DNA of 64,000 nt, from the NCBI GenBank assembly GCA_036172245.1, contig JAYWIR010000091.1:62001-126000 (forward strand), given 5' to 3'. Below the pieces are notes generated by a model. It did not search any database, had not been told where the DNA came from, and saw nothing but the letters and a program-made list of their open reading frames with translations. The first letter of the stretch is position 1; the number at the start of each line of letters is the position of its first letter. Source of the stretch: Raillietiella orientalis. Its lineage: Eukaryota. Positions 1 to 49,348 of this stretch are shown piece after piece. The position numbers and the translations under genes are program-made.

Positions 1-874
1 CGGACGCCAAGGTGGCAAGTCTCCTGCTGCATCGAGGGACGCGAAAAGTTGATCAGCGGCTGGACAACAATAGAACTGGCAGACGCCACGACCCCGAGCG
101 TCCAGCCGCGAGGACTAAGAAGATGGGGCGAGCTGCTGGCCATCCCTATGGATGTGCTGAAGTGGCCCCCGCTTCTTCAGGAATCCAGGATCCTGCCTCT
201 TAAGTGGAAAGAGTCGGCGTTGCTGTTGTTGCATTGGGGTTTACCCTGCAACGCACGCCGCTCTCACTGGACAAGAGGAGTTGTGGATCCTGCGTGTGTC
301 AGGTGCGGAGAGCGGGAATCGCTCTCCCACCTTATTATGGACTGTGCTGCCCTTCGTCCCCTTTGGAAACGGTTTGGGACGATCCTCGGTCTCCCAACGG
401 GCAGTTCCCCTAGAGACGTTCTTCGGCCCCTCTTCGTGAAAGACGCCCTGCAGCCAGCCGCAGCCCTTGCAGCCTTGTGCTGCGTCCGAGGCATCGTGGC
501 GGCATGGAGCGACACCAACAAGGAAGGAGTGGTTCAACACGCGAGGGATGTCATCCCATATTCCCAATGCTTCTTGCGAAGAGCTGCCGGATGGCCCCAA
601 CTGGGGAATATGAGGACTCACCTCGAGGGCTTCGTTCGACGGATGGGCCCTCTCCACAGCGAACAGTGATCCCTTCCCTGCCCTCCAACTTCTTTTTGTT
701 TGTTTCTTTTTATTTTACTTTTTGTCTTATCCCCATCCCCCTTCGCTGTCGGGGAGTGCCACGCCGGGCTGCGTCCCGGTGTCCCGACAGGTCCTGTGTT
801 TACGGCCGTGGTGGGGCCTAGTACCACGCATGTAAAGTTGATTAATAAACGCCCCGGGCGTACCCGGGTGATAA
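1..874 (+). mobile_element. 3' part of an L1/Tx1-like LINE (probably family D): ORF2 C-terminus, T-rich 3' UTR and hairpin terminus
   Basis: ORF 49..669 has the zinc-finger pattern CVRCGERESLSHLIMDC. It ends AATAAA(844-849)CGCCCCGGGCGTACCCGGGTGATAA, the same end as 33630-33660. Confidence 0.85.
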
Positions 875-1297
875 CGCCGAATTCAAGGGGCAGGCGATCC
901 AGGGGCAACTGCTCACAGAACTCGCGGACGGATTCCTTAAAAAGATCTCAGTCCTGGAGATTCCGGAGCGTGACGCCTTTCAGGTATTCGCGAAGGTGTT
1001 CCTTCGCACCTGAGAGTCGCGTCCAGTCCCCCGGCAGACGCCAATCCCTGGATGGCGGTAATTAGTCGCGAGGCCGCTTCTCGAAAATTAGCCGGGAATA
1101 GTCCAACAACGTCGACACAACCCTCCCCCGTTTGCCGACGCGTGAACACAGGTCAGCGTCCAGGAAGACGTGGTCGATGCTGCGGACCATTCCTCTCTCA
1201 CCCGCGAACAAGTTGCGCGCACGCATCGTGGCGCACAACCCGTTCATCGCGTTCACATGTGTTTCCGGCTCACCTGTTAGCAGGCGGACATTGAAAT
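875..1297 (-). pseudogene. Family D ORF2 endonuclease C-terminal half, continuing the host split at 7205
   Basis: Reads FNVRLLTGEPETHVNAMN...SIDHVFLD...LPLDRLPLEFG. Colinear with the uninterrupted paralog at 44950-45375. Confidence 0.85.
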
Positions 1298-1610
1298 TTA
1301 TCACCCGGTCACGCCGGGGCGTTTATGAATAATAATAAACTGGTCAGGGACAATGTCCTTAACCAACAGAACGACAGAGAACATAGAAAAATTACCGGCA
1401 CGCAGGCCTGGTAAACAAACCGCTCGCAGCGCGGGAGGAATGAGGGGAAACAAACAAAAATCAAAAACTGGAGGGAAGGGTAACGGGTTTTTGGTTAGGC
1501 TCCGTACTCACGGGGATTTATACGATGAGCACCTAACATGTTCCGGAGCCAATGGGGATGCGGGTGTAAAAAGAAAATACAAATTTAGTTTATGGAGGGT
1601 AGGGCAATGA

Positions 1611-4600
1611 TCACCGGGTTGTCCGCTGATGAGGGTGTGTCAACCGGTGGTGTATTGCGGCGAGATTCCTCTTTGTCTCCTCTGTCAAATGAGGCCATCT
1701 AGCGGATGCTCCCATGTAGAAGGATGCTTTGCTGATTACCTCTTGGTGCTGTCCGTTGATTACCAACGCCTGGCGGACGGAAACTATCGCGCGTATGCAA
1801 CCGATGGTTGCAATCCTTGCGCTTAGTGAAAGCCCGCTCGGCGTGAAGAATCGTCGCAGAAAGTCTCTTGCGGTGTCCACGGGATGCAATAGTGCTGTTG
1901 CCAGCCTACGCCACAGTCCTTGTAGGACACCGCAGTCCAGAAGTAGGTGCGGAATCGACTCCGTCGATCCGCACCGAACGCAGTTCTCAGACGCAAGTCC
2001 CCCGGAGTCACGATGCCAACGCTCGTTGCACTGAAAACCCCAGTGAACGAAAACCAGCACGGCTTGTTTCCAAGCAAGGGGGAGCAGCGAACTGTCCATA
2101 CACTGTGGAGGGACTACAAGTTCTTCGGGGGTGACAGCAAGTTCTTCTGTCCACCGGAGGAGTCCCTTTGCAGTAACACGAGGAGTGGCGGCGTCCGCCA
2201 ACTCACTCGTCTTCCAGGCGCCAAGGATTTTGGTTTTCCCGCTATCGTGCAGGAAACCTCCCACCTCGCCAGTTGGTAACTGTCGTTTTTTGCCCTGAGG
2301 GCAGACAGCGCTGCGGCAAGAGGCGTGGCAGCAAGGGTAGAAAACTTCACCTCGTCCTGCAGTACTTCTCCCAAGGATCGTGGAAAAAATTGGCGCAGGG
2401 GGCGAAGATCTTCAGGGCGTATTCCTTGGAACGCCGCCCAGGATTCAACAGACTCCTGCCGCCAAGCTTCAAAGTTCATTGGGCGGCAGGAGATCCAAGG
2501 GTGTGCTTCCAGAAGTGCGGTCAACTGCCGCAATGGAAACCCGAAACCCCGCTTCCTGTATTGAGTACCCGGCAAAAGCGAGAGAAATCCTCCGCTGCCG
2601 GCGCATCTCCGCAGGAGAATGCGAACTTGCACACACAGGGGGGATGTCCATTGCTGGGCACACAGTGCCAGCAGTCGGAACTGCACCTGCAGTCCGATTC
2701 GCTCCATTGTCAAGATACCCAAACCACCATCCAGACGCGGAGCTAAGAAATCTATAAGGCGGATCCTAGGTCTCGCCGGACCCCAGAGAGCGTTCCTGAG
2801 CAGGCGCTTAGCCCGCTGTTTTGCCGCATAGGGGGGGTCCAAAACAAAAAACAGGGGAGGGAGGAGGGAGGCCACAAAGGTGTTCCAAATAGTCGCCCGT
2901 TCCTGCAAGGTAAACTTGCCGTTAAAGAACGGGCTGATGGCCAACTCTGCTTTCTGAAGACAGTCCGCCCACGCTTCGGCTGCGCCGAAAGCGCCCAACG
3001 GAACGCCAAGGTACTTAAAGTACCCGCCCGTGGGGATATCCAGGCGGATCCAGTCGGACTGCCCCTCCCACGACGTACCCACAGGAACGACCACGCTCTT
3101 CTCTCTGTTCACGCTCACGCCCGCTCCCCGACGAATCAGGTCGAAGAAATCCTCGACACTGGACGCCGGGGTGGACATGGGGAGCAGAAGAAGCAGTTCA
3201 TCAGCGTAGGCGGCCACGGCAGGCGTTCCCGGGCAGGAGCTTGGCAAGTAAGACAGCGTCAGCCTGTATGCTCTTAGCACCAACTCAAAGAAGATGCTGA
3301 AGAGCAACGGGATTAAGCTGTCGCCCTGTCGGATGCCCCTACGAACGGGAATACCATACACGCGGCAGCCGCTAAAAGTGATGCAGGTTAGCGCGTGGCG
3401 CCAGCACGCGCGCAAATACAGCAGGAGTTGCGCCGGGAACCCAAGGCGTTCCATAAGCTCCAAAAGCAGCTTCTGGTTTACGCAGTCGAACGCCTTGCGG
3501 AGATCGACGGCGACCGCCAAAGCACCTATCGTTCCCTTCTTCCGTCGGCGCCTGTTTTTCTTGCCTGCGGCAGTGACTTTAGCGGCAGCCTGGCTTTGCT
3601 GCGCCACAACTTCCTGCAGCTGCATCCATGTACGCGCGAAAAGGATGTTCGCCTCCATGGACTGTCCCGGAACCGCGTAGGTTTGTTCCGGGCTCACCAC
3701 AGATTCCGCGATTCTTCCTAACCGCGCGACCCACAGCTTGGAAAACAACTTGACGTCCGAGTTCACCAAGGTGATTGGACGCCAGTTGTTAAGTTGGCGC
3801 AAGTCTCCGCCTTTCGGCAGGAGACGCACCTTCGCTGAGCGGAAGGAATCAGGGACATTCCCGGATTCACTCATCAGCGTCGCCAGTTTCAGCATCAAGG
3901 GAATCAGCTCCACTGCAAAGCACTGATAAAACTCTGCAGGGAGCCCATTCTCGCCTGGCGCCTTTCGTCTCTTCAACTTAGCGATGGCGGACGAAAATTC
4001 ATCCGCCGTGAAGGGCTCGTCGAGACGTTCGCGCTCCTCCTCGCCGACAACACGAGCATCCTGAGACAGGAATATCTCAGAAAGAATATCCTCCGTCGGG
4101 GATTCCGCGTAGAGCGAGGAGTAGTAGCGTGTCACAATGGGGCGTACTTCGGCTGGGGCCGAGCATTCCTGGCCCTTGTCGTCCAACAGGCATGCTGCTC
4201 CGGACTGCCAGACCTGGCGCTCGGCCGTCGCCTTGTACTCTGCAAGACGCCCGACATCCGCGCGTCTCGAAAACGTGCGGGCCTGCAGAAAGTCTTTACT
4301 GTTGGCCACGCCCTCTCCGAAACCGCGTGGAAGCCGGTGCAAGGAGAATTGGCAACAGTACTCGCGGACAGATCTTTTGAGATCGTCCCAGTCCGCAAGT
4401 TCTTGAATGGCAAAGCCCCGGAGGTATTCACGTAGATGCTTCGCAGCCTCCGGTTGGCTAAGCCAATCCGCCTGCATCCTCCAGCTTTGCAACGGAGGCC
4501 CCCTGCCTGGCGGAAGGATCTCAAACTCCAACCTGTGGTGGTCAGAAAGCCTAGTCAACAATCTTCCTCTCCTACCCACACGCGAATGCAGGTTTTCCTC

Positions 4601-5203
4601 GAGGAAAACGTGATCGAGCGATCTTTCCATTCCAGGTTCGCTGACCATCAAGTTGGCGGCGTGCACGGACGCGCACATCTCGTTGGGCAGCGCGCGCTTC
4701 CTCGCGCGGCTCCAATCGTCGGAGAGCAGGCGGACGTTGAAGTCCCCAGCGACGAGGTGCGCCACTTGGAAGCCGGAGTTGTTGAGCCACTGGCTCTGCA
4801 CCTCACCAAAGAAAGCTACTCTTTCTTCGAGGTAGCGAGAGCCACTCGGCGCGTAGACGTTCGTAACGACGAGATCGATGGACTCGGACCACTTGATGAC
4901 AAGCTGGCCTATCCGTCCGTTGTCATCGAAACGAACACTACGCACCGCTACCGCCATTTTTCCTCTTACGAGGAACGCGACGCCGCACGTGTGTGCGCCG
5001 CCGCACCGCCAATGTAGCGTTCCCCCTGCGCGCATCTCCATTTCGGCTGCCTGCTCGTCGGAGATTACGTGAATCTCCTGCAGCAGCGCGAGGTCGAAGG
5101 GGCGCAGGGCGTTGGCTACTAATCGCCTCTTCTCGTCGTTCTGCAGTCCGTTCACGTTCCAACACGTTACGGACAGACGACGAGAAGACGCGATTCCCCG
5201 CAT
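1611..5203 (-). pseudogene. ORF2p (APE endonuclease, RT, zinc finger), family A, disabled
   Basis: Motifs WNVNGL, LQEIH, NVYAP, GDFN, LDH, SDH, KAPGENG, NWRPITL, DLRKAFD, GIRQGD, KYLG. YADE replaces YADD, and a frameshift near 2220-2260 leads into ORF 1611..2264. Confidence 0.92.
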
Positions 5204-7125
5204 TACTGCTGGGAAGGTGGCAGCTTTTTGCTCGCTTTATCCGGCGAGCAGACGGCGAGCAGCACGATTGGCTGGAGGGGACGGTCGCCACCGTCCTCTG
5301 TCGTGCTGCATGCATGTAATGCCTCCACGCCAGGCTTAACCCCGTCGGGTTTCGTGGAGACTTCGCGTTGCTTCGCGGCGAGCGTTGCCTGGCTGCCTAC
5401 TTTTGATCGGCGCGCACACGCTTTCGAACGAGTTGTCCTCGTCTCGGTGATCGGAACGGCATCCATTTCGGAGTCCGACCGGCGCATGTTCGATCGGGTT
5501 TCGGCCTTCCGCGAAGCAGTGACAGGTTCTGCTGGATTGACAGCTGTTCTGTTTTCGTTTTCCGTCACCAGAGCATCGCTTTTGGTGACGGCTGCTTTCC
5601 CGGCGCGCGCGTTTTCAGCGTGCTCACGCGCAGTTGCACGAGGGACCTTTGCTGAAGTCTTCTTTACTTCATTACGGTTCCTCACTTCGCGTGGCGCCGT
5701 AAATGGAGATCGTGCTCCATGGCCATCTTTGAAGCCATCCGCGTCTTTGGACGGGAGCACTTTCGATGGCTCCGACACGCTCGTCATGGACGCTGCCTTC
5801 GGAAGGGCTTTTAATCCCTTCGTTGGCATGGCATCCGCGCCAGTCGAGAGCTTGCTCTCCGACTGCAACGGCGTGAGATTTTTCTCCGCTTTCGCGGTGT
5901 TGGATCGCGACGCGGATTTTTTTTTGCCGACTTTCGAAGTCGACACGGCACAACCCTTCTTACCCGATTTGGGCTTCTCAGCCACTGCAGGAGGTGAAGG
6001 AATGGATCTGACGGTACTGGAAGTGTTCTTACCGCCGTTGTCCATTGACGTCTTCGCCGGTTGTTCGAACTCCGAAAGAGCCGGGCGTGCTTGGGAAGGA
6101 CAGCTAATGCGCCTAGGGGGACTTACCATTGCCCCGGATTCCCCGCACCCTTTCTTTTGCGGCTTCCCTGCCGCGCGAGGGGGTGCGCAGGGCTTCGCTT
6201 GCGAGGTTTCCTGCTGCTTTGGGGCGACATTCCGCCTCGCGTTTTTACCGAATTTCTGCCGTGGGGTCACCAGGTTTTTCGCAGATGTTTTTTTTTTATC
6301 GGCGCTTTGTTTTCTAGGATGGAGCTTCGCGGCTGCCTTTTTTCGCAAAAGATCCGGGCAATTTTTCAATTGGTGCCCGGATAGTTTGCAATAACGGCAT
6401 TTTCCAGAGGGGCATTTATTTAAACAATGCCCTGCCTTCCCGCATTGCTCGCAGGTTTTTACTTTGCCCACGAACCACAGGTGAACGACCGTGTCTTTCA
6501 CCTGTAGTTTGGTGGGCAGCAGACGGCGGTCGGGCATTGTAAGCCGGACTCCAGCGACTCCGCTGTGTATGGACGGGAAGTCCTTGAGGTTGCTACGCAC
6601 CCTCCACAGCGCATGGACCTTGGCGAATTTCGCTAACGCGTTCCGAATATCAGTATCGGAGATTTCCGACTCGATGTCGAAAATCTCCACCACAAATGAG
6701 TCGTCCATGGCGGCCGGGAAGACCTTCTGGCCACGGATCGACAACGGGGTGCGCAGCAAGCGTTGCACAAGTGCAGCGTCTTTGCAACGCACCTTGAAAT
6801 AGCCCATGTCTTTTACGGGCATAATGGCGAGAAGGTCCTCCTCCCGCACGCCAACACGGGTCAGTTCATCGTTGAACTGATTCCCGTAGCGCGCAGAAAG
6901 AAAACCACTCACCTTATATCGGAGAGCAGGTCTATAGCCTTGGGCTACGTATGCCCGCAACTCCGACTCGTCGAGTGGTTTCCCTTCGACGGCTGCTGTG
7001 GCAGCAACGTCAGCAAAACTCCTCTCCATTGGCGAGAAAGACAAAGTGGAGGCGGCCGTAGGTTCCGCGATTGCAGATCCGGATGCTGTTCCTCCAACTT
7101 CAGTAGCTTCAAGTTGGGTCGACAT
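5203..7125 (-). CDS. ORF1p, gag-like nucleic-acid-binding protein with two CCHC knuckles (family A)
   Basis: Open frame with likely ATG at 7125 (MSTQLE). Motifs CEQCGKAGHCLNKC and CRYCKLSGHQLKNC, followed by a K/A/S-rich tail. Confidence 0.85.
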   Translation of the reverse strand: MSTQLEATEVGGTASGSAIAEPTAASTLSFSPMERSFADVAATAAVEGKPLDESELRAYVAQGYRPALRYKVSGFLSARYGNQFNDELTRVGVREEDLLAIMPVKDMGYFKVRCKDAALVQRLLRTPLSIRGQKVFPAAMDDSFVVEIFDIESEISDTDIRNALAKFAKVHALWRVRSNLKDFPSIHSGVAGVRLTMPDRRLLPTKLQVKDTVVHLWFVGKVKTCEQCGKAGHCLNKCPSGKCRYCKLSGHQLKNCPDLLRKKAAAKLHPRKQSADKKKTSAKNLVTPRQKFGKNARRNVAPKQQETSQAKPCAPPRAAGKPQKKGCGESGAMVSPPRRISCPSQARPALSEFEQPAKTSMDNGGKNTSSTVRSIPSPPAVAEKPKSGKKGCAVSTSKVGKKKSASRSNTAKAEKNLTPLQSESKLSTGADAMPTKGLKALPKAASMTSVSEPSKVLPSKDADGFKDGHGARSPFTAPREVRNRNEVKKTSAKVPRATAREHAENARAGKAAVTKSDALVTENENRTAVNPAEPVTASRKAETRSNMRRSDSEMDAVPITETRTTRSKACARRSKVGSQATLAAKQREVSTKPDGVKPGVEALHACSTTEDGGDRPLQPIVLLAVCSPDKASKKLPPSQQ

Positions 7126-7204
7126 CGTCGTCAAAATGTACGACGCCAAGATGAAGCGGATGAAAGCACGGAGACGAGAGCGAAGAAACACACGTCCGCA
7201 CTCG

Positions 7205-9638
7205 ATTGAAATCTCCCGGTATCAGGTGAGCCTTTCGCACATTGGTATCCGCCAGCCAGTCGCGCTTCAGGGTTTCCAACAGCCTGGTGCGGTCGCGGTA
7301 ACCCTGTTTGCGGCTGGGGCCATATACGTTTGTGACGATTAGGTCGATCGAGTCGCACCAGCTGAGAAACAGCTGACGGATCCGACTATCGTCATCAAAC
7401 CACACGCCTTTTACGGCAGCGTCGATGACCGGCTTCACGAAGAACGCGACCCCGGTGGTGTTGCGGATGCCGCATTGCCAGTACAGCGGACCCCCCGCTA
7501 TCGTCTCGATCTCCTGGACGTCTGCCGCGGTGATCACGTGCATCTCCTGCAACAGGGCCAGATCCAACTCCCGCAGGGTGTCTTCTGTATCTCGCCAGTT
7601 ACCGCCGTGGCGCAGCCCGTTGACGTTCCAACAGGCCGCGCGAATCCGAAGGCGACAGGCGAGTCCAGGTGTTAGTCCTGGGAAAACGGCGATGCGGCGT
7701 CTGCCACCTGCTGGGGCGGGACGATAGGTGGAGGGGGAGGGGGGACAGGTACTGAAGGCACCTGTTCCTCGTCCTCCATCGATGGCGGCGCGTCGGCCGG
7801 ATCACCCGCAGGTGGAGTCGCGCCTACCTGTTCGCCTTCCTCCATGGGTTCGAACTGCTCAGGTTTCGCGACGGCAGGGAGGACTTCACCCCCCTGCTCT
7901 CCCTCCTCCATGGGGGTGGGCGACTCGACGGCTTCCGGGCGTGGGTACTCCCCCTCCGGGATTCCCACGCTGCCGCTTCCTTCCGGTTTCTCCTCCCCGC
8001 TGGTGGAGGGGAGGCGCCTCCTGGGTTTCTGGGACTTGCGTCCCGACTTCCTGGGGAGGGCCTCCGAGGAGGAGGATCCGCTTGCGGCCCCCAGGTCGCA
8101 CTCACCTGCGGGGGCCTTGGTCGTCGGAGCCGACTTGCGTACGCCCTTGCGCGACGGGGTTTTGCGCTTGGCGAGCGTTGCTGCGAGCTCCTCCGCCGCT
8201 TTCTCGACGGCCGCGTCTTCGCCAGCGGCAACCGTTGCCGCGGGCTGCTCCGCGAGCTTATCGAGCGCGGAGTCATCGCTGACGGCGAACGTTGTCGCGG
8301 GCTCCTCCGCGACTTTATCGAGCGCGGCGTCCTGGCTGTCGGCGCGCGAGTCTCGCGTCTCACCCTCTAAACGTAGAATGGGCTCGTCCACCCGAGTACT
8401 TATCGCGTCCGGAGCAGCTGTTCCGCGAACATTGCCGAGGGCGGACTCGGCAGGAACGGCTAAGCGTTCCAGTGCCACCGAGCATTCGCGGAGTTTTTTT
8501 TTTGAAAGCGGCGCGGCTTTTTTCTTGTTGCCGGCAGTTTTCTTCTCCGAATTTTCTTCTATCATCACTTTCTTTTTTTTCTCTTTTCTGGCCTGAACCA
8601 GCTGCCAACCCTCCTCCATTCCCGCGTCCACGGGAGCTCTTTCCTCTGACGTCTGTACGGGAGGAAGGGAGGCTGGCAGTTGGGAACGGCCATTTTCGCT
8701 AGCTGGTCTTTCTACCAGCTTTCCACGTTTTCCCTGCGCCTTTTTGGCGGCAGTGGGCACCGGGGTGGGGCGCTTCAAGCTCACGCGCCGAACGTGACCC
8801 TTTTCGCCGCATTTGGCACACAATGTTCGGGCACCTTTCTCGTAGATGCCCTACTGCATTGCAGTAGCCACAAAATTGGCGTTTCCCCACGTACCAGAGG
8901 TCCACCGCTTCTTGGCAGACCTCCAGCTTGTGGGGAAGCGCACCACCCTCTTTTACTGTGATACGGGCCGCAGCTTGACCTCCGAAAAGGCTATTGTAGC
9001 CTTGGAAAATCGTGGACTTCGGCCACAACGCGTGCACTTCTCCGTGCTTTTGTAGCTGTTCTCGAACCGCTGACCTCGTCATGCGACTGGAGATCCCAGT
9101 GAGATGGACCACCACCGAGCGGTCCATCGTTATCGGCAAGATCTTCCGACCATCAACGATCAGCGGGTCGGTGATCAGGTGTCGGGCCAAGGTGATATCC
9201 TTGCATACCACGTCGACCCGCTGCCCGCCGCTGAGGACGCAGAGGCCGTCCAGATCTTTTTCGAAAATATTGGCGTTTTGCAGCGCCTTCGTAAAGGCGC
9301 GTGCAGTTCGTTCATCGAAAAGGTTGCCTACCTTGTAGACTAGCGAGGGTTTATACCCCGCTTTCTTGTAGGCTTCCATCTCGGCCATGGCTTCCACGCT
9401 AGGCGCGGCAACCATGGCTCTCCATGACCTCGGCGTCGCCGGGGACGATTCCGGGGCGGATGCCCTTAATCCAGTAGGCTGTGGGGACGAACAAGCCTCC
9501 ATCACGCCTACTTCCATCGCGGTGTCCTTTGGCAACGCTGCCATCGGACACCGACGATGTGCACGCACAAATCACTCAAGAAGAAAAAACGCTCGCTTTG
9601 TCACGCAGGCGGAGCGCAGGAAAAGCACGTCCGCTCTC
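7205..9638 (-). mobile_element. 5' part of a family D LINE: frameshifted ORF1 (about 9544-7672) and EN N-terminal half
   Basis: 5' motif GAGAGCGGACGTG at 9638-9626. Knuckles CGYCNAVGHLRERC and CAKCGEKGH. EN motifs CWNVNGL, LQEMH, NVYGP, GDFN. Confidence 0.87.
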
Positions 9639-10482
9639 CACAGCGGAGATTTGGCGAGGGAGTCAGGAACGAGCGGGCATATCTTTAGTCCCGCGGTCAT
9701 TCCAGGCGTCCCAAAGTCCGACGCCTGTCAGAATTTAAGGCTGTGGCGGAGAGGCAGGCCTGGCAGTCAGGCTCGGCTGGCTTGCTGGTCCATCAGGGCC
9801 AAGACCGCTCGATCCCAGGTCACGTAATCCGCATCGTGCGGGAGTTCTATTCCTCCTTTTACGCGCCACTAACACCGGAGCCTCATTTCGCGCAGCGCCT
9901 GCTGACGCATGGCCTCCCTGTTCTCAAGTAGGAGAATCGTTTCAGGTTGGCAGAACCGTTCACGATGCTAGTGGTCGTCTCTGTCATCAGCAGGCTGGAG
10001 AATAGGTAGGCACCAGGAGAGGACAGACTGCCCGAGGAGCTTTACAAACACTTCGCGCCAGAGCTGGCCTTCCTGGTGCTTACATTAAGTACGCTGATCC
10101 GCGAACACAAGGAAGTTCTCGCCTTGTTCCGGTCAGCAAAAGTACGTCTCCTGCCGAAGTCAGGACACTTACGCAACATTGGCAACTGACGTCCCATCAC
10201 GGTGATGAATGCGGACGCAAGGCTGCATGCCATGTTGTGGACTGAGCGTTTGGGGCGGGTGGTTGCTTCCGTGATCAGTCCGAAGCAGACCTACGCTGTT
10301 CCGCGACGAAGCATGGAGTCAAATCTGCTCCTCGCCAGCACATAGTAGCAGTTGCGACAAGGCAATGCCTAGGAAAGTTAAGGGAGTCTTGCGCTCCTCT
10401 CTGACCAGAAACATCGGATGGAGGGTAGAAGGGACCTTGCGGAAGCCCTTGCAGTCGCGGTCGACTCTCACAAAGCATTCGA
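9639..10482 (+). pseudogene. Decayed ORF2 fragment (linker to RT KAFD) of an E-like LINE
   Basis: Reads FGEGVRNERAYL, AERQAWQSG, FRSAKVRLLPK, VAVDSHKAFD, with many stops. Confidence 0.8.
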
Positions 10483-13400: not shown

Positions 13401-13510
13401 CCCTGGCCATCTCTGGTGGTCGCGTCATGCATCCCTGCCTGATGTACCGTCGAACCACGCAACGCTCGCACTAGATGAGACTTTCTGGCAGTAGGAGCAC
13501 CGAGAAAGGG
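10483..13510 (-). mobile_element. Family E LINE with a large internal deletion (ORF1 fused to RT near 12740)
   Basis: Flanked by CTCACAAAGCATTCGA at 10467-10482 and 13511-13526. 3' end AATAAACGCCTCGGCGAAATCCGGGTGAAAA. ORF1 is homologous to 26733..28148. RT motifs MDFRKAFD and RQGDSLSP. Confidence 0.85.
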
Positions 13511-13526
13511 CTCACAAAGCATTCGA

Positions 13527-19766: not shown

Positions 19767-19780
19767 CGCTGTCTCGGCAG

Positions 19781-33660: not shown

Positions 33661-34165
33661 CCCCAAATCCCGCAGGTAGGCGATGCAAAGGGAACCGGTC
33701 GCAAAACTCCTGGACCGACCGCTTTAAGCGGTCCCAGTCCTAAAGCGTCCGCATTCTGAAGTTCCGTATGAACGCGCGAAGATGTTCCGCCGCGTCCGGA
33801 AACTTCAGCCAGTCCCCTGGCAGACGCCACGCTGACGAGGGAGGGCCGTTGTCGCGCGGATGCACTTCGAACACGATTCAGCCATGGTCCGAGAGCTCGG
33901 ACGGTAACTTGCCACGCCTGCCCACGCGAGAGCATAGGTGCTGGTCAAGGTACACGTGATCGATGCTCCGTTATATGTCCGTATCTCCGGCCAGCAAGTT
34001 GCACGTGTGCATTTGTGCGCACAACTCGCTGACGCGGTCGTTCAGTGTATCCGGCGCACATGAAAGGAGGCGCAGGTTCAAATCAGCTACGATCAGGTGC
34101 GCTTTGCCAACACCTGCTTTGATCAGCCAATCACGTCCGAGGGCAAGGTAGAATTCTCTTCTTGC
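33661..34165 (-). pseudogene. EN/linker fragment of an E-like LINE
   Basis: Reads AHLIVADLNLRLL, SIDHVYLD, LSDHG, LHRLPAGFG. Confidence 0.78.
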
Positions 34166-35025
34166 CTTGGGAAGAACCCCCCTCGCTGCTGCGGTGCCCT
34201 CCCTGATGAAGGATCTGGACAGCAATGTTGCGGCGAAGTGGGAGGTTTCAGCTACAATCTTCGGAAAGGAGAAGAAGATAGCAAAGTTGAAGACGGGCCA
34301 GTTAGCAGACGCTGCATCCCCGAGTACGCCTCCTAATGGGCTTCTGCGATGTGGCGCGCGGCTCGATGTTCCCATTGAACATCTGAAGTGGCCCCCGGTG
34401 CTCATGAACACTTCCACCCTCCGCTTAAAATGGCAGGAGTCGGCTCTCCTGTTGCAGCACTGGGGACTCCCCTGCACCGCCCGCCGACAACACTGCACCT
34501 GGGGAGTTGTGGACCCCAAATGCGTCAGGTGTAGGGAACGGGAGTCCCTCCCCCACCTGCTAGTGGATTGTGTCGCCCTTTGGCCCCTTTGTTTTCGCTT
34601 TGACGCGGCCATCGGAATTCCCTGCGGCAACCCCAGGGACGCACTGAAAGCCCTCTTCGTTGTCGACGCCCTTCGGCCAGCGGATTCGCTAGATGATTTG
34701 TGCTATCTACGCGGGATCGTCAGCGCTTCGTTCAAGGATACGGGAGGACAACGCGACGAGGGAGCCATCCATCCAGTCTCCCAGTTCCTGAGGAGAGCGT
34801 CGCGCTAGCCCCACCTGGATCCAAGCATGCAGCAACAGGTTGCCGGCATCCTGCAAACGATGCCACGGCCTTACCAGCAAGTGTGATACCTTCCCATACC
34901 CTATCAGTTTTTTCTTTTCTTTTTGTTTTTTTTTCTTGTTTTTCCTTCTTCTTCCTGCTATGTGGTGGACCGTGCCGTTCTGTGAACCGGTGATCCGGCA
35001 GCCTCTCTGTTTCTTCGTGCGTGGA
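34166..35025 (+). pseudogene. Family E ORF2 C-terminal fragment and partial 3' UTR
   Basis: ORF 34167..34808 is homologous to the reverse complement of 10570-11420. The terminus is missing. Confidence 0.82.
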
Positions 35026-38000
35026 TCGTCCGGGAACCGCGTAGTTTTGTTACGGGATCACCACAGATTCTGCAATACTTCCTTATCGCGCGAGCCACAG
35101 CTTTGAAAACAACTTGACGTCCGAGTTCACCAAGGTGATCGGACGCCAGCTGTTAAGTTGGCGCAAGTCTCCGCCTTTCGGCAGGAGACGCACCTTCGCT
35201 GAGCGGAAGAAATCCGAAATGTTCCCGCATTCCCTCATCAGCGACGCGAGTCTCAGCATCAAGGGGATGAGCTCCACTGCATACCATTGATAAAATTCTG
35301 CAGGAAGTCCATCCTCGCCTGGCGCCTTTCGTCTCTTCAGCCCAGCAATGGCGGACGAGAACTCCTCCGCCGTGAAGGGCTGGTTGAGACTTTCGCGTTC
35401 CTGCTCGCCGACGACAGAAGCATCCTGAGACAGGTGTATCTCAGAAAGAATATCCTCCGTCGGGGATTTTGCGTACAGCGAGGAGTAGTAGCGTCTCACA
35501 ATGGGGCGTACTTCGGCTGGGACCGAGAATTCCTGGCCCTTTTCGTCCAACAGGCATGCTGCTCCGGACTGCCAGACCTGGCGTTCGGCCCTCGTCTTGT
35601 ACTCCGCGAGACGCCTGACATCCGCGCGTCTGGAAAACGTGCGGGCCTGCAGAAAGTGTGTGCTGTTGGCCACGCCTTCTCCGAGACCGCGTGGAAGCCG
35701 GTGCAAAGGGAATTCGCAGCAGAACTCGCGGACAGATCTTTTAAGATTGCCCAGTCCGCGAGTTCTTGAATGGCGAATCCTGCAAAGTGCTCACGGAGAT
35801 AGTCCGCAGCCTCCGGATGGCTAAGATAATCCTCCTGCATTCTCCAGTTTTGCAACGGAGGCCCTTTTCCTGGCGGAAGGAGCTCAAACTCCAACCTGTG
35901 ATGGTCAGAAAGCCCAGTCAACAATCTTCCTCTCCTACCTACACGTGAATGTAGGTTTTCATCGAAGAAAACATGATCGAGCGGTCTTCTAATTCGAGGT
36001 TTGCTTACCATCAATTTGGCGGCGTGCACCGACGTGCACATCTCGATGGGCAACGCGCGCTCCCTGGGGCGGCTCCAATCGTCGGAGAGCAGGCGGACGT
36101 TAAAGTCCCTCACGACGAGGTGCGCCACTTGGGGGCCGGAGTTGTTCAGCCATTGTCTCTGCACCTTACCAAGGAAAAGTAGGAAGAGTAGGAAAGCTAC
36201 TCTTTCTTCGAGGTAGCGAAAGCCACTCGGCGCGAAGACGTTCGTAACGACGAGATCGATGGACTCGGACCACTTGATGACAAGTTGGCCTTCCCGTCCT
36301 TCGTCGTCGAAACGAACACCACGCACCGCTTCCGCCATTTTTCCTCTTAAGAGGAACGCGACGCCGCACGTGTGTGCGCCGCCGCATCGCCAATGTAGCG
36401 CTCCGCCTGCGCGCTTCTGGATTTCGGCTGCCTGCTCGTCGGAGATTAAGTGAATCTCCTGCAGGAGCGCGAGGTCGAAGGGGCGCCAGGCGTTTGCTAC
36501 TCAGCGCCTCTTCTCGTCGTGCTGCAGTCCGTTCACGTTCCAACACGAAACGCACAGACGACGAGAAGACGCGTTTCCCCACATCAATGATGAGAAGTTG
36601 GCGGCATTTTGCCCGCTTTCCCCGGCGAGCGGTCGGTGAGCAGCACTGCTGAATGGAGATTACGGTCGCCACCGTCGTCCGTCGAGCTGCACGAAATCGA
36701 GTGCTGATTTCTGCGTAACGTCGTTTGACGCTCCGGGATGAGCTCTTGCTCCTTCGCGGCAAGCGCTGCTTGCCTCAGGGCTTTAACCCGTCGCGTTGCG
36801 GCTTCCGCGCGTGTGATCCGACGTGCGTCGGTGACCTGAGACTCCGTTTGGGAGTCTGATTGAAGCGCAGGCGCTTCGGGACTCACCTGCTCTGTCGTTT
36901 TGGAGGTAATCACGAATGTAACCGTGGACACTTCCTTTTTCGCGATCACCGCAACATCGTCCCTAGCGATCGCAACTTTCGCGCAATTCGCGACCGCAGC
37001 GGTAGCCTTTCCAGAGGCAGAAAGAACATTCGCGCGACTCTTTTGCATCTCGCAACAGTTCTTTCCCTTAAGAGGCTCTTGGAACTAGGCTGCGGAGAAT
37101 TTTAGGGAGATTTTAATTTTCTACCTTCCACCGCAACCTTCCACCCACCGTCCGGTTGTTCGTAGCGCTTCGCAATTTTCTTGAGGGACGCCTACGAACG
37201 TTCCTCCCCAACCGCCTAGGGCGCAGCTTTCGCAGCACCGTTAGAAGGCGGCGAAAGCGCGACCCCGCGGCAGTCATGAGATTGCTCCTCTCCGTCCTAG
37301 TTGAAGAACTTGCTTCGCGGCTCGAAGTATTGTGCGCACAACAACTTAATCAGATATTTGTGCTCGTGTGTGCCCGGAAAGGGGAAATTTCCTGACGAAA
37401 CTACGAAAGAAGCGCCGAGGATATCGCGGCAGAAGATTTGCAGTGGTACCGTGCAGCAAGACCAGCTGCCAGGATGCAGGCACCTAGAGGAGGAGTGGAG
37501 AGACCGTCGTCCCCCATGGAACCATGGAGGTAACGTGCGGCAACGGCGAGGCGATGGCAGGCATGCCGAGGTTCGGGCCCGAGGCGGGCTTTGCTGCGCC
37601 GGCGACGGCGCAGCCTTTTCCTATGCGTCGGTGGCGGCTGGACAAGCGGGTGTCCAACCACCAAGAAAATTCGGGTAGCCGCTCTGCAGCACAATCCAAA
37701 AGGTGGATCGGCCAATAGTGGATTTAGAGCCGAATGTAAAGACCATCATTTTGAAGACTGAGCTGATCAAATTTAATAATATCAGGGAGGTCTGTCTGTC
37801 ACTCGATAGAACGGATATCAATTTTGAACACATAAAGGCGATCATACCGGTAAATAACGGGTTCACAGTCTTCACCGACTGTGAAAATATTAGAGATCGA
37901 TTGATCCAGGAAAAGATCAATATAAAAGGGAGGACGGTTTGTGGTATTAACGAAATGCCATACACAACCGTCTTTCTGAACGGCATCTCCATCCTCACAC

Positions 38001-41000
38001 CGCAAATAACGGTGTGGAACTTTTTGGAAAAGTATGGGGAAGTTTTGGACATGAAATTCCAGAACTTCTCCAAAAATATATTTTCTGGCGACATGTTCGC
38101 CAAGATGAAGATGAAGGAGGGAGCTGTTATACCTAAGTTGGCGTTCATTGACGAACAATCCCAGGGAGTGAACGTGCGTTACCGGCAACAACCGATATTC
38201 TGCACCGGGTGCAAGCAGTTTGTCCACAGGGCCGGCGCTTGCCCAACGTGTCGTTGTTTTCGCTGCTGTAAAGTGGGACATCAAGTCCCAAACTGCCCGC
38301 AGCCGGAAGTGTGCTCCTTCTGCAAGAAACACGGACATGCCAAATGGAGCTGTCCGAAGTTTGCAAACTGCAGAAGGATTCGAGGTCTCTCTCCCGTGAG
38401 AGAGAGAAACACCAAGGAGGCGGAACAGCCTCAGAAGGCACGAAGGATGAACAAGGTGGAGGAAGCCGTCATGGTATTCAAAGACGGCTTCATACAGGTA
38501 GGGAAGAAAGGAAAGAGGAGGATGCTCATCAAGGAGCAAGAAATACCTCTTAACTTAGAAAAAGAAAAGCAAGAAGGCGAGAAGATGAAGGTAGCGCAGA
38601 AAGGCACGGAAGAGAAAATAGCCGAAGCCTCACCGGTGTCGCAGGAGGCCGTGCAATCTATTGAGAAGCTGGCATCACTGGCTAATAAACTCCTAGATGT
38701 GCCGAGCGGTCCCAAGCAAGAAAAAATCCTGCAGAAGTTTTGCAATGCACAGGAAAAGGTCAACCAGCTTGTGGAGGTCACCCAACGCGAGAAGCTAGAG
38801 GAACAGCTTCTCGACGTGAAGGGGAACTTCTGCGCCAAGGTCGAGATAGAAGCGCTATCTGGAAAAATTCATTGCGCAAGCCGAACACTCTACGGAGGAG
38901 GTGGAATTAACCGACCTCACCGGAAAAGAGAGTGACTCCGACAGCGAGAAGCCCGCTGCTTCTTCATTGTCTGGAAGAGCACGCTCTCTCAGACAGAAGA
39001 AGCTCAGGAAGGCCAAGAAATAGGTCTTCCCCTTTTATTGCCTCTTCCCTATCAAACGCCAGGAGGCTGAACATCGCCTCCTGGAATGTAAACGTTGTGG
39101 TCGACCGGGGAAAAAGAAAAAGGATTGTACGGACCATCGCACAAGACAAAGTGAGCTTGCAGGAGACCCACAAGATGGGTCTCGAGATTAGGCCGCAAAT
39201 GGAACGGCGATTCAACGGTCAGATGTTCGTCAGCGAGGGAGAACAAAAAACGCAGGAAGTGGCGGTCCTAATCAAGAAGAACCTGGCCACCACTATTCTA
39301 GAATTGTTCTGTCCCCAACCCGGACGAATAATCGGCGTGCGACTGGGCTGGTCCGCTACAGTTCACCTCATCTTGGTGAACGTGCACGGGCCGCACAGGC
39401 TGAAACATCGTTGTGCGGAGGCGCTGCATGCAGCACTATGTGAAAAGGTTGCCCGAAGGACGTCGTGACTGCTGCTGGCGATTTAAAAATATTGGATGAG
39501 ATCACTCACTTTCAAGACGCCAGAGGAAGGACGGCGTATCAGCGGCAATCCTAAATGGTCGGACTGGTGTGGCGAACTGCAAGTAACAAGCCGATCGATG
39601 ACGTCCTGCACAGCACCGAACTTGGGAATCGCATCCAGGGTTTACAAGACATTATGACCACGGTATCCGATCACCTCCTGGTGCGGTTTTCCCTGAGAAC
39701 GAAGAATCCTCGGAGGAGGCAAGGCAATAGGGCGGTGCTCATCAGCATGCCCGCCTGGTACGAAACCCTCCCCAGACATCAGCCTGTCCTGCAGACGACT
39801 GTGGAAGAAACAACAATCCGAAGAGTCGCCGACTGGGACAGCCTGGAACACAGGATACACCGGTTTGCAAGCATGCAGTTCGGAAAAAGGCGCTTGAGGC
39901 AGGAGGCGTACCGGCAGCTGAACATCCAAGATCGCTCACTCTCAAAGTACTCCGATGAGTACGAGAGTCGGTACGAATTTCAGAACAGAAAATTGGAAGT
40001 CGGCGTGCTGGAGCAGGGAAATCTGGCAACAGATATCTTCTGCATCCAGTAGGACGGTCAAAAGCGACAGTCGTCTGAGGACATCGTGGATGCCTTTCAC
40101 AGGCATTACACGAAACACTTCAGGCGACAACATCTATGTCGCTCTAGTCAAGAAGTCTTTCTGAGCTACCTCGAGAAGAGGACCGACGATCACCAGCGGA
40201 ACAGACTGGAGGAGGAGTTCTTCGAAGATGAGGTGAAGACTGCGTTTGGTCAACTAAGCAAGGACGTGGCAGCGTGCCCTGACAGCGTACCCATCACTCA
40301 CTATAAGCGGTACCTGCATGCCTACCTGCGTTTGTTCCACCAGTTGACCCACTGCATCCGCGAAGAAGGAAGACTTCGACAGTCCTTCTACGAGACTCGA
40401 ATGTGATTGTTGCCAAAAGGAGGAGACCTCACGCATGTCGCTCAATGGAGGCCAATTTCGATCCCGAACTCGGATGCGAAGTGGTTGGCGAATATCTGGT
40501 CCAGCCGCTTAGGCAGGGTCATGACGAAGCTGATCTCTCCGGTCCTCACATGCGCTGTCTTAGGTCGCCACATGTCGGAGAATGTCAAGTTCGCCCAGGT
40601 CATAGTAGGCCTCAGCCGATATGTCGGTGAGAACCTGTCGCTGGAAATCTCTGACATGGAGAAGGCTTTCGACACCATCGACCATGGGATTCTGCAGAAC
40701 GTTCTGGAGAAGCTAGGCCTTCCGAAACACTTCAGCAACTTCGTGAGGGTGGTACTCCAGAACCAGCACTGCCGAATCAAAATCAACGGTTAGGAGACTA
40801 CACCAATCCGGATGGAACGGGAGTCTGGCAGGGCGATTCGCTAAGTCCGATGCTGTTCGCCATCTCCATGAAGGCGTTCTCGTCCTTTATCGAGAAAAGC
40901 GGACGACTGCAAGGCATAACAATCGATGGGCGGCATTTTATCCATCTGGCATACGCTGATGATCTACTCTTCTTTATCAAGGGAGAGAGAAATCAACGAG

Positions 41001-44000
41001 CGTTTCTGGATGTGGTAGACCTAATTGATCAAGGCCTGGAAAGAGAGATCAACGCCTAGAAAAGCGAGCCCTTGCCCGTTGGAATCCTCGATCTCTCCGC
41101 TCTAACAGGGAGAGGATTACGAACGGTGGACAAGGCCAAGTACCTAGGTGTCTTCATTGGCGGCGTCACCGCGTCGAAGCTATTGTGGTATGAGATACTA
41201 GGGAAAACGGCAAATGAAGCAGTCAAGTACACCCGAACGGACCTTGGAATGAAGCGAAAGGCCAAAATATGGAACGGAGTACTCCTTCCAAAAGTGCTCT
41301 CCTTGGCAGCCTTCGCGAGGATGAACAAGGACAAAAGGAAGGAGTCCGACAAGCTGCAGAGGAAAACACTGTGGGGCGACTATCGCCCAAGAGTCCGACT
41401 AAAACCCCTGTGTCGTCCCAGGGATGAAGGCAGTTCCGGGATGAAGTCGCTTGCACACTACATAGAAATCATGGATACGCGACACCTTCTGGACATTGCC
41501 ACTCACTGGGATGACAGGCCGTATTCGGCGCACAGGGCCTTCGCGTTGTTGTTGAACAACTCGGAAGGCCTGATGACTGCTCTGCTAGGCCAAGCAGGCG
41601 AATGGAAAAAAATCGTCCCAACCTAGACGAGGAAGCAACAGCTGGTGTGTAAGCGTAAACTCAAGATCGTGCCCAAAAGTAGTGAACTCTGGCAGGACGA
41701 GTCGATCCTGGTTATCCCTTGGATGCTTGTTGTAACGCTGGACACGAGAAGCTGGATCCACCAGCGGTCCAGAGTTACTTTGCAACGGATCCAGTAATGG
41801 CGCCGAGGAAGATACCTACATCACTCTCGTGTACTTCGGTACATAGAGATGATGTAAGGGAGGTTCACCCATCACACCCGTGAGATGTGGATTAACCACA
41901 ACGACTTTGCGTGGTAGAGGGTAACCAAAATGAACCTCCGTAGGATGATCAAGTATGAAGATAAAGACACCAGCGCCCTCCAAGAAGCCGCCGACCGCTA
42001 CGGGAGCGATCGCGTCAACCTGCTAGCGATCGGCACGACGCTCTGGAGGAGTGACCTTCCCCCGAGGACCCAGGACGACCTCCTGATGTTTTATCATGGA
42101 TGAATCCAGAGTGGATCCCGATTGCAGCACTACACCGGAAGAAGGGAAGATCGAGACTGCACAGCATGTGGAGACATCCACACGAGACTTCACGTCTTGA
42201 CCTGTCAAAGATTGCTTCATGACTGGCTGATCCTGAAAAGGATCTTCGGACTTACCACCAGGTCCGCAATGGAGCTCCTCGCCGGGTTGTTTCAGGGGGA
42301 TGGTAATGTTCCCTGTTACAATCCCATGGTGAAGACGACCATCGCCCTCTTCATCACCGCCATACTCGTGCGGTGGTGGAGTATGAGGAAAGCCAGGATA
42401 GTCGCACCACCGATGGAGATCCTACAAGGACTCCTGAGAAGGGAAATCGGCATTAGGAATTGCGGAAATATCCAAGCCTGGACGTACCGATTCATCCTGA
42501 AGAGGATAGAGGACGGCGCCCGGGACCAAACATCAGGAAACTGACCATTAGTGCAGAACTTGTGAGAACCAAAGGACTTCATTGTGATAAAAGAAAAGTG
42601 CTAATGGTATGGATGAGATTGTAGTGTGAATGTTTTTATAGAAAAATGTTAGAAAAATAAATTTACCCCACCCTTCGTTTGACTTGGGAAAACTGTCTTG
42701 TTGGGAAGGATGCAGCTGGTTGCTGCATGTTTTGAGGCAACGCAACGCTGCTTTCGTTGGCATATTTCGACGAACCTGCAGACGCCTTCGTGAGGTTTCC
42801 GACTGAAGCCTACGAAATGGACAGAGCGCTCATGGAGACGGTTACCACGCAATTTTCTTTCGCGTGTCCTCCTTTCGCCTTTTCGCACGGAGCGACTGGT
42901 TTTACAGATCCCATTTCGCTAGTAGCGTTTCCGCGATCAGCTACTGCGACAGTAACGGTACGCGCGGAGCCCTTTCGTTTTTTTATAAATGGCTTCCCTG
43001 CCGCGCGATTGCCGTTTCAGGGCTTTGATGCTGAGCAAGCAAACTTTGAGACCGCGTTCGGGCCCTTTTTATCTTCGGCCTTTCGCGTTCCCCCCTGTTT
43101 TTTTTTTTTGAGGATGCTGTTTTCTCCTCTGCGCACTCTTTGGCACGCCGGAGTTTAGCATTCTCCTTTTTTTCTTTATGTCGGGGCACTTTCTAATTTC
43201 GTTCCCGGACTCCTTACAGTAGCGACACTTCGGGGAAGAGCATTCTTTACCCCGATGCCCTACTTTGCCGCATTGCTCGCACGCGCGAGTTTTGCCAAGG
43301 AACCACAGGTGAACGACCGTGCCGCTGACCTGTTGCGCGGCAGACAGTGTGCGGTTGTTAAAAACGGTTACCCAAACCGCAGCAAATCCTGTGTGGACGG
43401 AAGGGAATTTCCTGTACGAACTCTCCTTCCTCCACATCGCATGAACGGTGGCGACTTTCCCCAACGCGTCCTGTCGTTGATCTCCGGCTCTACTTCCGAG
43501 AGAACAGCGACAAAAGACTTGTCCATCGCGGAAGGAAAAACTTTTTTTCCGCGGATGGACTAAGGAGTGCGGAGGAGACTCTGCACAAGTGCAGCCTGCT
43601 TGCATCGTTACTTCACATATCCTAATGCTGGAACAGGCATGAGTGCTATGAGGTCCTCCTCTCGCACTCCCACACCGTAGAATTCGTCGGCGAACTCCTC
43701 CCCAGACTTAGCTAGTCCACTTACGTTGTAGCGAAGAGCAGGCTTGTTGCCCTGGGCTTCATAGGCTTGCATCTCCGCCTGGACGGGGAGGCATCCTTGT
43801 ACGGCTGCAGAAGCAACCACGTCCGCAAAGCTCCTGGTCAGTGGAGCGGGGCTCGAACACGTTGTCGCCATCCCTCCAGCTGCGAGAAGTTCCTCAACTA
43901 CAATTCGAGGTCTTCTATGCTGCGTTGTTCACTGCTCATCCTTAGGGATGTGCAGTGAAATGCGTAAACACAACCAAACAGCGGAACCACGGAGGGACAC

Positions 44001-44022
44001 GAAATCTCGTCCGACTCGTATG
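35026..44022 (-). mobile_element. Second family A-like copy, 3'-deleted, with ORF1 split by the F insertion at 37307-42692
   Basis: ORF2 35026-36584 is closely similar to 3665-5203. ORF1 pieces at 43871-42693 and 37306-36584. 5' end CGAGTCGGACG near 44018. Confidence 0.82.
37307..42692 (+). mobile_element. Full-length family F LINE, disabled
   Basis: 5' end AACTTGCTTCGCGG. ORF1 has three knuckles (CTGC, CFRC, CSFC). ORF2 has EN and RT (AYADD). 3' end AATAAA...GACTTGGGAAAA. Confidence 0.9.
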
Positions 44023-44345
44023 AAGGCGAACATTAAAATCGCTTGCAACCAGATGGGCATTCCGCACGCCTGCCTCAGTCAGCCAGTCGCGCCGGAGGGC
44101 AAAGAAAAATTCTTTGCTTGCCCTCCTGTTCGTCAGGTCTGCGCTGCTCGGGGCGTACACGGTCGTGACGATCAGGTCAATGTAGTCGGACCACCTGAGG
44201 ATCAGCTGGACGACACGACCGTGATTGTCGAAACGCACGCCGCGCGCCGTGGCCTCGTCGCCCACCTGCTAGGCTGGCCAAAGCAGGTGGGCGACACCGC
44301 AACTTCTCGGTGTCCCACACCGATACCACAGCCTCCCTGCGGAGG
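44023..44345 (-). pseudogene. Family E-type EN fragment, host of the A-like insertion
   Basis: Reads RLWYRC...VYAPS...AHLVASDFNVR. Paralog of 48900-49205. Confidence 0.8.
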
Positions 44346-49200: not shown

Positions 49201-49234
49201 CCCTCCAAAGATGCGTTCGATCTCCTGCGCTCGT
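46202..49234 (-). mobile_element. Family E LINE from EN to the 3' end, with an RT deletion near 48150
   Basis: Degenerate hairpin terminus at 46202-46234. Motifs GDFNVR and QQGDSLSP...AYSDD. Confidence 0.85.
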
Positions 49235-49348
49235 ACAGTGCAGACGTGTTTCCGCGTCTATCCGCGCCAACGATCGGGCAACTTTGTGCCTGCGTTTTTG
49301 CTCGCACTTGTGTGTTCCTGTGCAATCTGCCAAGTAGCATAGTGCAAC

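Follow-up and report, generated by a model that had tools for sequence, protein, structure and literature searches.

A LINE of the family that we term A lies in sense orientation in the GDFN codons, within the catalytic motif, of the endonuclease (EN) gene of another LINE, D1. Both elements belong to a 64-kb window (the whole stretch of DNA analysed) made up of nested LINE copies throughout and almost wholly LINE sequence. We propose, with a probability of roughly three in four, that A integrates at a specific sequence in the EN genes of D-type and G-type LINEs, a form of growth by LINE-into-LINE insertion. The insertion and an uninterrupted paralog of its host, D2, have the following parts.

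875..1297, minus strand: downstream piece of host LINE D1, EN from FNVR... to about aa 307
1290..1297: target-site duplication (TSD) copy at the A 3' junction, ATTGAAAT on the plus strand and ATTTCAAT in host sense
1298..7204, minus strand: family A LINE, full length, 5,907 bp, both termini complete
7205..7212: TSD copy at the A 5' junction, ATTGAAAT, identical to 1290-1297
7205..9643, minus strand: upstream piece of D1, ORF1 and the N-terminal part of EN up to GDFN
44343..46201, plus strand: D2, uninterrupted D-type paralog, 5'-truncated, with the unoccupied site GATTTCAATCTCTGCC from 44953

On its minus strand D1 reads ...AHLIPGDFN up to the junction and resumes with FNVRLLTGEPETH from 1297 downward, as a sequence-only reading had described, and A splits the Asp-Phe-Asn codons of D1 EN between the two copies of a perfect 8-bp TSD. 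The sense orientation claimed in that reading is seen directly in the junctions and in the rejoined host. In-silico excision (1..1297 joined to 7213..) produced the predicted colinearity, a single blastn alignment of rejoined positions 875-1914 to 45375-44343 (76.5% over 1,040 nt) that crosses the junction, where the multiple alignment is free of gaps. The claim of an empty site in the same window holds in that D2 is uninterrupted, but D2 is a paralog and not an allele (78.7% identical in the EN region), and has TGA where the Gly codon would be. D1 begins with CTGTGGAGAGCGGACGTG at 9643; at 875 it is truncated by the plus-strand element X, whose 3' end lies at 874. D2 is cut at 46201/46202 by element G3. 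Chance is not a credible source of this arrangement, because an exact 8-mer stands at both ends, the LINE termini are complete and excision restores colinearity with the paralog. One contig of set X1 joins 1288 to 7204, skipping 5,915 letters that equal A plus one TSD, a hint only, as its shorter side measures 30 letters at a minimum likeness of 80 and X1 may be the window's own sample. Other X1 contigs reach 19 and 29 letters past the two A junctions, under the 31-letter bridging rule, and contig sets X2 and X3 match the window in short low-complexity pieces alone.

Judged from its predicted proteins, A belongs to the L1 superfamily of LINEs. It is bicistronic (ORF1/ORF2) and encodes an EN of the APE type as well as a reverse transcriptase (RT), arranged as follows.

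5206..7125, minus strand: A ORF1, 640 codons from ATG, no Pfam family
2117..5203, minus strand: A ORF2 main frame, 1,029 codons from ATG, Exo_endo_phos and RVT_1
1614..2411, minus strand: C-terminal part of A ORF2 in another frame, weak zf-RVT match

The element runs from CGAGTGCGGACGTG... to ...AAACGCCCCGGCGTGACCGGGTGATAA and ends without poly(A); both termini recur in other elements, among them a second A-lineage copy, A', and other families. ORF1 encodes two CCHC-like knuckles and a long basic tail, and its TAA stop overlaps the ORF2 ATG (TAATG at 5201-5205). Within the stop-to-stop ORF2 frame, Pfam profiles place an N-terminal Exo_endo_phos domain at aa 26-233 (2.5e-11, 44.2 bits against a cut-off of 24.5) and RVT_1 at aa 474-745 (8.3e-18). 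The zf-RVT match (E 0.0035, 18.4 bits) falls below its cut-off of 27.5 and lies in the shifted frame, beyond a frame change near 2235 in this copy; one X1 contig has one extra letter behind 2235. Among solved structures, human L1 ORF2p is the best relative of A ORF2 (4.9e-45 in the RT region), with R2 at 3.1e-14, and L1 EN chains match A EN at 1e-05. A protein database search with A returned 56 matches, the best 29% identical and none telling of taxon or clade, and Atlas protein clusters were generic RT/EN only. Rfam found no family at gathering score across the 64-kb window; a relaxed Rfam search of 6800-7400 gave three miRNA-model matches alone, all far below threshold, and thus no HDV-like ribozyme at the A 5' end; a tRNA search found none.

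A' lies elsewhere in the window, in a host of another family, E.

44018..44342, minus strand: host E, G-type EN fragment, 81% identical to element H, ending ...ASDFNVRLH at the A' 5' junction
42693..44017, minus strand: 5' part of A' (5' UTR and ORF1 start)
37302..42692, plus strand: F2, an F-family LINE splitting A' ORF1 at a position homologous to the F3 site in element B
35017..37301, minus strand: remainder of A' (ORF1 end and ORF2 aa 1-528), 87.5% identical to A

The A-like 5' end noted after ASDFNVR is real, with its boundary at 44018/44017 and not at 44022. The minus strand reads ...GCAAGCGATTTTAATGTTCGCCTTCATA/CGAGTCGGACGAG, for comparison with the A 5' end CGAGTGCGGACGTG; GTTCGCCT is clearly host and TCATA is ambiguous, and the earlier TSD estimate of about 16 bp forms the lower end of our range of 16-21 bp. 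A' starts 8-13 nt downstream of the A junction in homologous codons, again in sense orientation. E is 58.0% identical to D1 over 307 columns (62.4% in the 300 nt that precede the junction), and between A and A' the identity is 88.8% for the EN region and 87.5% over 1,671 nt. The junction of A' therefore looks independent of that in D1, as it lies in another host family. The 3' part of A' and its 3' junction are lost (cut at 35017-35022), and for this reason we infer, rather than read, a first-strand nick shared by A and A'.

Both readable A-lineage junction sets thus fall in GDFN codons, in two host families (n = 2, within the 64-kb window). Ten L1-type EN copies in the window cover the target region: ATTTYAATGTYCGCCT is read in two, both occupied, and in none of the remaining eight, none of which is occupied, a contrast of ten sites that have decayed since insertion. 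The variants include AATCTCTGCC in D2, AACGTTCGTC in H and GACTTCAAC in A and B. If A is site-specific, most A 3' ends genome-wide would be expected to be followed by ATTTYAATGTYCGCC; scans of metagenome, genome and viral contig collections for the conserved 3' end gave 0 matches.

Four other families or family pairs (B, G, D/X and F) each recur, to the nucleotide, at a site of their own in other LINEs. B2 is flanked by a perfect 15-bp TSD (49220-34, 55180-94) and stands head-to-tail with B3; G1 has a perfect 16-bp TSD (10467-82, 13511-26) and is in tandem with G2, and G3 occupies the same RT ..KAFD site in D2 as G1 does in its host. A single nick at GFG/E is common to X, X' and the 5' end of D1. 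F3 has a perfect 9-bp TSD, and F2 occupies the homologous place in ORF1 of a host from another family. Inserts are again closer to each other than hosts are: 78.1% versus 66.6% for X/X', and 79.7% versus 63-66% for G1/G3. The presence of a 94% segmental duplication (19773-26266 and 56545-64000) means that the recurrent junctions B1/K, K/L and F4/B1 may be copies of a single event. Since at least five families have their own fixed sites in other LINEs, the region appears to grow by LINE-into-LINE insertion, and the window is best read as a sequence-specific LINE community whose members integrate into one another's coding sequence.

A competing account holds that A is drawn to the LINE cluster as a region, for example through chromatin, and lands at almost any point within it, the coincidence at GDFN being luck. 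Because the window is almost wholly LINE, every insertion would hit a LINE in any case; the A events number two, and some junctions in the window lie off the canonical sites (15254-15256, 34168/34170, 35017-35022 and E/D2 at 44342/44343). We nevertheless consider this account unlikely, as two same-orientation hits within 13 nt in elements of about 5.9 kb would be expected at 27/5900 x 1/2, by our own estimate roughly 0.2%, and each of the four other families also returns to one exact nucleotide position, with perfect TSDs and tandems.

It is considerably less probable still that a single ancestral insertion was later copied by segmental duplication or gene conversion to give both A in D1 and A' in E. 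Such duplication does occur in the window, as the 94% pair attests, but identity is 58-62% between the hosts and 87-89% between the inserts (ORF2), and the 5' junctions are 8-13 nt apart, which together indicate two independent hits; the host families also differ, E being 81% identical to H and D1 78.7% to D2. Least probable of all, to the point of being nearly negligible, is that no insertion took place and that template switching or recombination between LINE copies produced D1-A-D1 as a chimera. Some junctions elsewhere in the window are rearranged, but here the 8-bp TSD is exact, the 5' and 3' termini of A are complete and of the same type as those of other full-length elements, and the rejoined host is gap-free at the junction.

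Under site-specific integration, A would insert in sense orientation by target-primed reverse transcription (TPRT) at the Asp-Phe-Asn-Val-Arg codons, G/ATTTYAAT GTYCGCCT, in the EN of D-type and G-type LINEs. The A EN, as the putative recogniser, would nick the bottom strand at 5'-...GGCGGACATTGAAAT^CTCCC-3', and probably at the same position for A'; the freed 3'-OH would prime cDNA synthesis on A RNA, whose tail would be the conserved AATAAA-hairpin-TGAnAA without poly(A), the hairpin having a presumed role. The top strand would then be cut further downstream, by 8 nt for A and by about 16-21 nt for A', to give the TSD. The insertion breaks the host EN inside its catalytic motif. As for RNA-guided targeting, no match between terminus and target flank common to both hosts was seen by eye. 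Poly(A) is present in none of the 12 3' ends in the window, all of which end in a hairpin followed by (T)GAnAA. In single folds, made with no covariation test, nine of the 12 have a hairpin of -7.6 kcal/mol or stronger; RNAalifold on the 12 gave no consensus structure (0 pairs), and the 3' motif alone at three mismatches is not above chance (14 matches versus 12.6 expected). A and B are about 72% identical in ORF2 and differ in target; in windows along the two, identity falls to its minimum (53-60%) at EN aa 136-240, a stretch that may fit, weakly, EN-based retargeting, and B2 carries a frameshift beyond about aa 800.

A wider proposition, to which we give even odds, is that the window is part of a chromosomal domain that builds itself through a community of at least five L1-type lineages, each nucleotide-precise for a different piece of the coding sequence of other lineages. 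Synonymous differences at an element's own site (GACTTCAAC in A and B versus GATTTYAAT in the targets) would then guard it against self-insertion. The sites would be the EN GDFN codons, a position 13 codons past the EN QE motif, the EN-RT linker GFG/E, RT ..KAFD and ORF1, and the LINEs would parasitise and inactivate one another and not host genes. Mutual targeting of this kind could explain the self-assembly of transposon-only regions. If true genome-wide, it would provide a simple sequence-level mechanism for the confinement and growth of LINE-only nests, which include the Zepp-type clusters proposed as algal centromeres; the A/B pair would help to find the determinants of EN specificity; and the elements would offer natural APE-type nickases with long recognition sites.

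The known targets of site-specific LINEs are rDNA, small RNA genes, microsatellites, telomeres and a few transposons; in the window, by contrast, other LINEs are hit in conserved coding motifs, and several families target one another. A literature search on LINE-into-LINE site specificity found nothing relevant. The nearest structural likeness is to Zepp (Chlorella/Coccomyxa) and ZeppL (Chlamydomonas), L1-type LINEs in nested clusters, the window likewise being a LINE-in-LINE nest with head-to-tail tandems. A passage of PMC3446292 describes one nested cluster per chromosome, and Table 3 of PMC3747384 has Zepp and L1-1_CR ending in poly(A), in contrast to the families of the window. The window further differs in that no fewer than five diverged families take part, each of them precise to the nucleotide in its site; the likeness to Zepp and ZeppL described here is one of nest structure. 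The sections consulted of the secondary literature on these two contain no nucleotide-precise site map.

Similar in integration are the Tx1- and R1-clade LINEs (Tx1L, R1, TRAS, SART and others), which encode an APE and integrate sequence-specifically into repeated targets, as here; the fixed nick, the TSD and the one-site tandem arrays of the window families match theirs. Tx1L has the Tx1D transposon as its target, and SART1 uses a UAAUG stop-start overlap. Human L1, whose ORF2p is the nearest solved structure to A ORF2, has a loose nicking preference for TTTT/AA and depends on poly(A), whereas A has a fixed site and no poly(A). Transposons are named among the targets of target-specific LINEs in the introduction of PMC4640811; the targets in the window, unlike those of Tx1/R1-clade LINEs, are protein-coding LINE sequences, including the codons of a catalytic motif, in families that target one another. 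Site-specific LINEs and Zepp-like nests are thus both known kinds, and family A is a variant of these.

A, an L1-type LINE, occupies 5,907 bp (1298-7204, minus strand) between two identical copies of ATTGAAAT at 1290-1297 and 7205-7212. On the minus strand, its host, the LINE copy D1, reads ...AHLIPGDFN into the upstream duplicate, and FNVRLLTGEPETH resumes from the downstream duplicate. The sequence-only reading, in which A had entered the GDFN codons of a D-type endonuclease (EN) in sense and left a perfect target-site duplication (TSD), is thus borne out by the junction reads, the identical duplicates and the orientation. Joining 1..1297 to 7213.. in silico yielded one blastn alignment against 45375-44343 (1,040 nt, 76.5%) that spanned the junction, and a multiple alignment placed no gap there, so the rejoined host is colinear with this interval. 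An empty site had also been proposed in the window; an uninterrupted copy does exist (D2, 44343-46201, plus strand, with TGA where a Gly codon is expected), although it is a paralog of D1, 78.7% identical in the EN region, and not an empty allele. The insertion of A into GDFN is real, and within the limits of the window its reading as sense targeting stands, the sample being two events with a complete junction pair in one.

The second event, A', belongs to the A lineage and lies in E (44018-44342), a G-type EN fragment that is 81.0% identical to the copy H and 58.0% to D1. Its pieces are as follows.

A' and the element that splits it
42693-44017, minus strand: A', piece with the 5' end
37302-42692: F-family element splitting A'
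35017-37301, minus strand: A', remaining piece; 3' part lost at 35017-35022

With the F-family insert taken out, A' is colinear with A and with the B-family copy B2. The minus strand at 44040-44005 reads GATTTTAATGTTCGCCTTCATA directly followed by CGAGTCGGACGAG, which, compared with the A 5' end (CGAGTGCGGACGTG), sets the start of this A-type 5' end at 44017, in sense, after ASDFNVRLH; the junction had earlier been put at about 44022. A and A' look like independent insertions because their hosts are of different type, because the hosts (62.4% identical over 300 nt upstream of the junctions) are less alike than the inserts (88.8% in the EN region; 87.5% over 1,671 nt), and because the 5' junctions differ by 8-13 nt. 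In the fast-evolving part of ORF1, A and A' are only 66% identical. After AAT at the A' junction, GTTCGCCT is host sequence (7/8 positions match H and D1 in an alignment judged by eye), and the adjoining TCATA could belong to host or insert. If the first nick was the same as for A, the A' TSD would be 16-21 bp; the earlier figure of about 16 bp falls within this range as its lower bound and depends on the same shared nick.

Ten L1-type EN copies in the window keep the A-site region (A, A', B1, B2, B4, D1, D2, D4, H and E). ATTTYAATGTYCGCCT is present only in D1 and E, the two occupied copies. No insert sits in the remaining eight, which read GACTTYAACGTCC (A, A' and the B copies), ...AATCTCTGCC (D2), ...AACGTTCGTC (H) and ATTTGAACCTGCGCC (D4). 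By a hand calculation, the occupied pair would coincide with the matching pair by chance 1 time in 45, in a small sample whose sites have decayed since insertion.

The whole window consists of nested LINE copies, and the families B, G, D/X and F follow the same rule as A.

Fixed sites of other LINE families and copies bounded by TSDs
B site: in G-type ENs, antisense, 13 codons past the QE motif (...SAEQAQEI)
49235-55179, plus strand: B2; perfect 15-bp TSD ATCTCCTGCGCTCGT (span 49220-55194); head-to-tail with B3 (from 55195)
G site: antisense, RT (reverse transcriptase) ..KAFD codons
10483-13510: G1; perfect 16-bp TSD; tandem with G2 (region 10467-15256)
D/X site: antisense, one nick at GFG/E, about aa 307 of ORF2, in three different hosts
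F site: antisense, ORF1
56553-62205: F3; perfect 9-bp TSD ACTCGGCAG in B3/B4 ORF1 (span 56544-62214)

ATCTCCTGCGCTTGT, the same flank as at B2, comes after the B1 3' end (26243). The G site also holds G3 (from 46202; region 46150-46260) in D2 and the 5' end of K (~28211) in L, itself a single case with a 3' end at 30333. At GFG/E lie the 3' ends of X (874; 860-890) and X' (33660; 33640-33680) and the D1 5' end (9643; 9620-9660), with a 13-nt repeat in D3. Rejoined, B3 and B4 are colinear with B2 (91.7% over 3,163 aligned positions); F2 (region 37293-42701) sits in A' ORF1 at a position homologous to the F3 site, and F4 and F1 stand in tandem across the same 8-9 nt (19773-19781). F elements are about 5.65 kb long, and the ENs of F and A share only 25-28% identity.

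Such recurrence could also arise by copying of whole composites. For X/X' and G1/G3, the inserts resemble each other more closely than the hosts do (78.1% against 66.6%, and 79.7% against 63-66%), which argues for repeated insertion. Copying has nevertheless occurred: 19773-26266 and 56545-64000 form a segmental duplication of an F + B composite at about 94% identity, one copy carrying internal deletions, so some recurrent junctions are not independent; those at B1/K, K/L and F4/B1 may duplicate others already counted. The junctions at 15254-15256 (G2 to F1), 34168/34170, 35017-35022 and 44342/44343 (E to D2) either interrupt both neighbouring elements or fall outside the usual sites; site-specific target-primed reverse transcription (TPRT) leaves them unexplained, and they probably reflect later deletions or recombination.

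All 12 readable 3' ends (874, 1298, 10483, 13527, 19781, 26243, 30333, 33660, 42692, 46202, 55179 and 56553) are without poly(A) and have AATAAA, a short GC hairpin and (T)GAnAA in common. Nine of them fold at -7.6 kcal/mol or stronger; RNAalifold returned no consensus structure for the 12. A search of the window against Rfam turned up neither a ribozyme nor any other family. Full-length 5' ends share an ...AG(T/C)GCGGACGTG-like start, and those at 7204, 44017, 49235, 55195, ~28211 and 9643 begin similarly across families (...AGTGCGGACGTG or ACAGTGCAGACGTG), a motif that may be an internal promoter or 5'-end signal.

Junctions, TSDs, orientation and recurrence are read directly from the DNA. 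In the mechanism we propose, the bottom strand would be nicked at ...ATTGAAAT^CTCC, ORF2p would recognise the 3' hairpin of the RNA on which priming occurs (the stringent type, as discussed in PMC3747384), and top-strand cleavage would vary in position. Site specificity would be seated in EN: A and B share about 72% identity in ORF2, their sites nonetheless differ, and their lowest identity (53-60%) falls in EN aa 136-240, a weak pointer to this segment as the specificity determinant.

A ORF2 matches Exo_endo_phos (2.5e-11) and RVT_1 (8.3e-18), and among solved structures it is closest to human L1 ORF2p (4.9e-45), with R2 far behind (3.1e-14). Its C-terminal part, weakly zf-RVT-like, sits in another frame, with the change at 2235; one contig of the coded sequencing run X1 has one extra letter behind that position. 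ORF1 comprises 640 codons from ATG and matched no Pfam family, and two CCHC-like knuckles weakly resemble retroviral nucleocapsids. In A the stop codon of ORF1 and the start codon of ORF2 overlap in TAATG (5201-5205), and in A', B2 and B4 they do so at the same place in TGATG (near 36590, 51255 and 62880), an overlap that suggests translational coupling; B1 reads TTATG there. The nearest proteins in a large collection reach no more than 29% identity, so close relatives of A are absent from the databases.

A scan of metagenome, genome and viral contig collections with the 3'-end pattern gave no match. In X1, which may be the source sample of the window, 44% of sampled words were present. One contig extends 19 and another 29 letters into two A flanks, against a bridging rule of 31, and one joins 1288 to 7204 (shorter side 30 letters, minimum likeness 80), skipping 5,915 letters, exactly A plus one TSD. 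These contigs give hints only. Two further contigs on A carry about 2.2-2.3% other letters.

Target-specific APE-type LINEs are described in the Tx1 and R1 clades, with transposons among the known targets (PMC4640811). The passages covered on target-specific LINEs and Zepp gave no nucleotide-level site map and no multi-family mutual targeting. Zepp and L1-1_CR end in poly(A) according to Table 3 of PMC3747384, whereas the elements of the window lack it. On their sequences, these elements are best filed as sequence-specific L1-type LINEs that take coding motifs of other LINEs as targets; site-specific LINEs are a kind already known, and what is new is the location of the targets in coding motifs of other LINEs.
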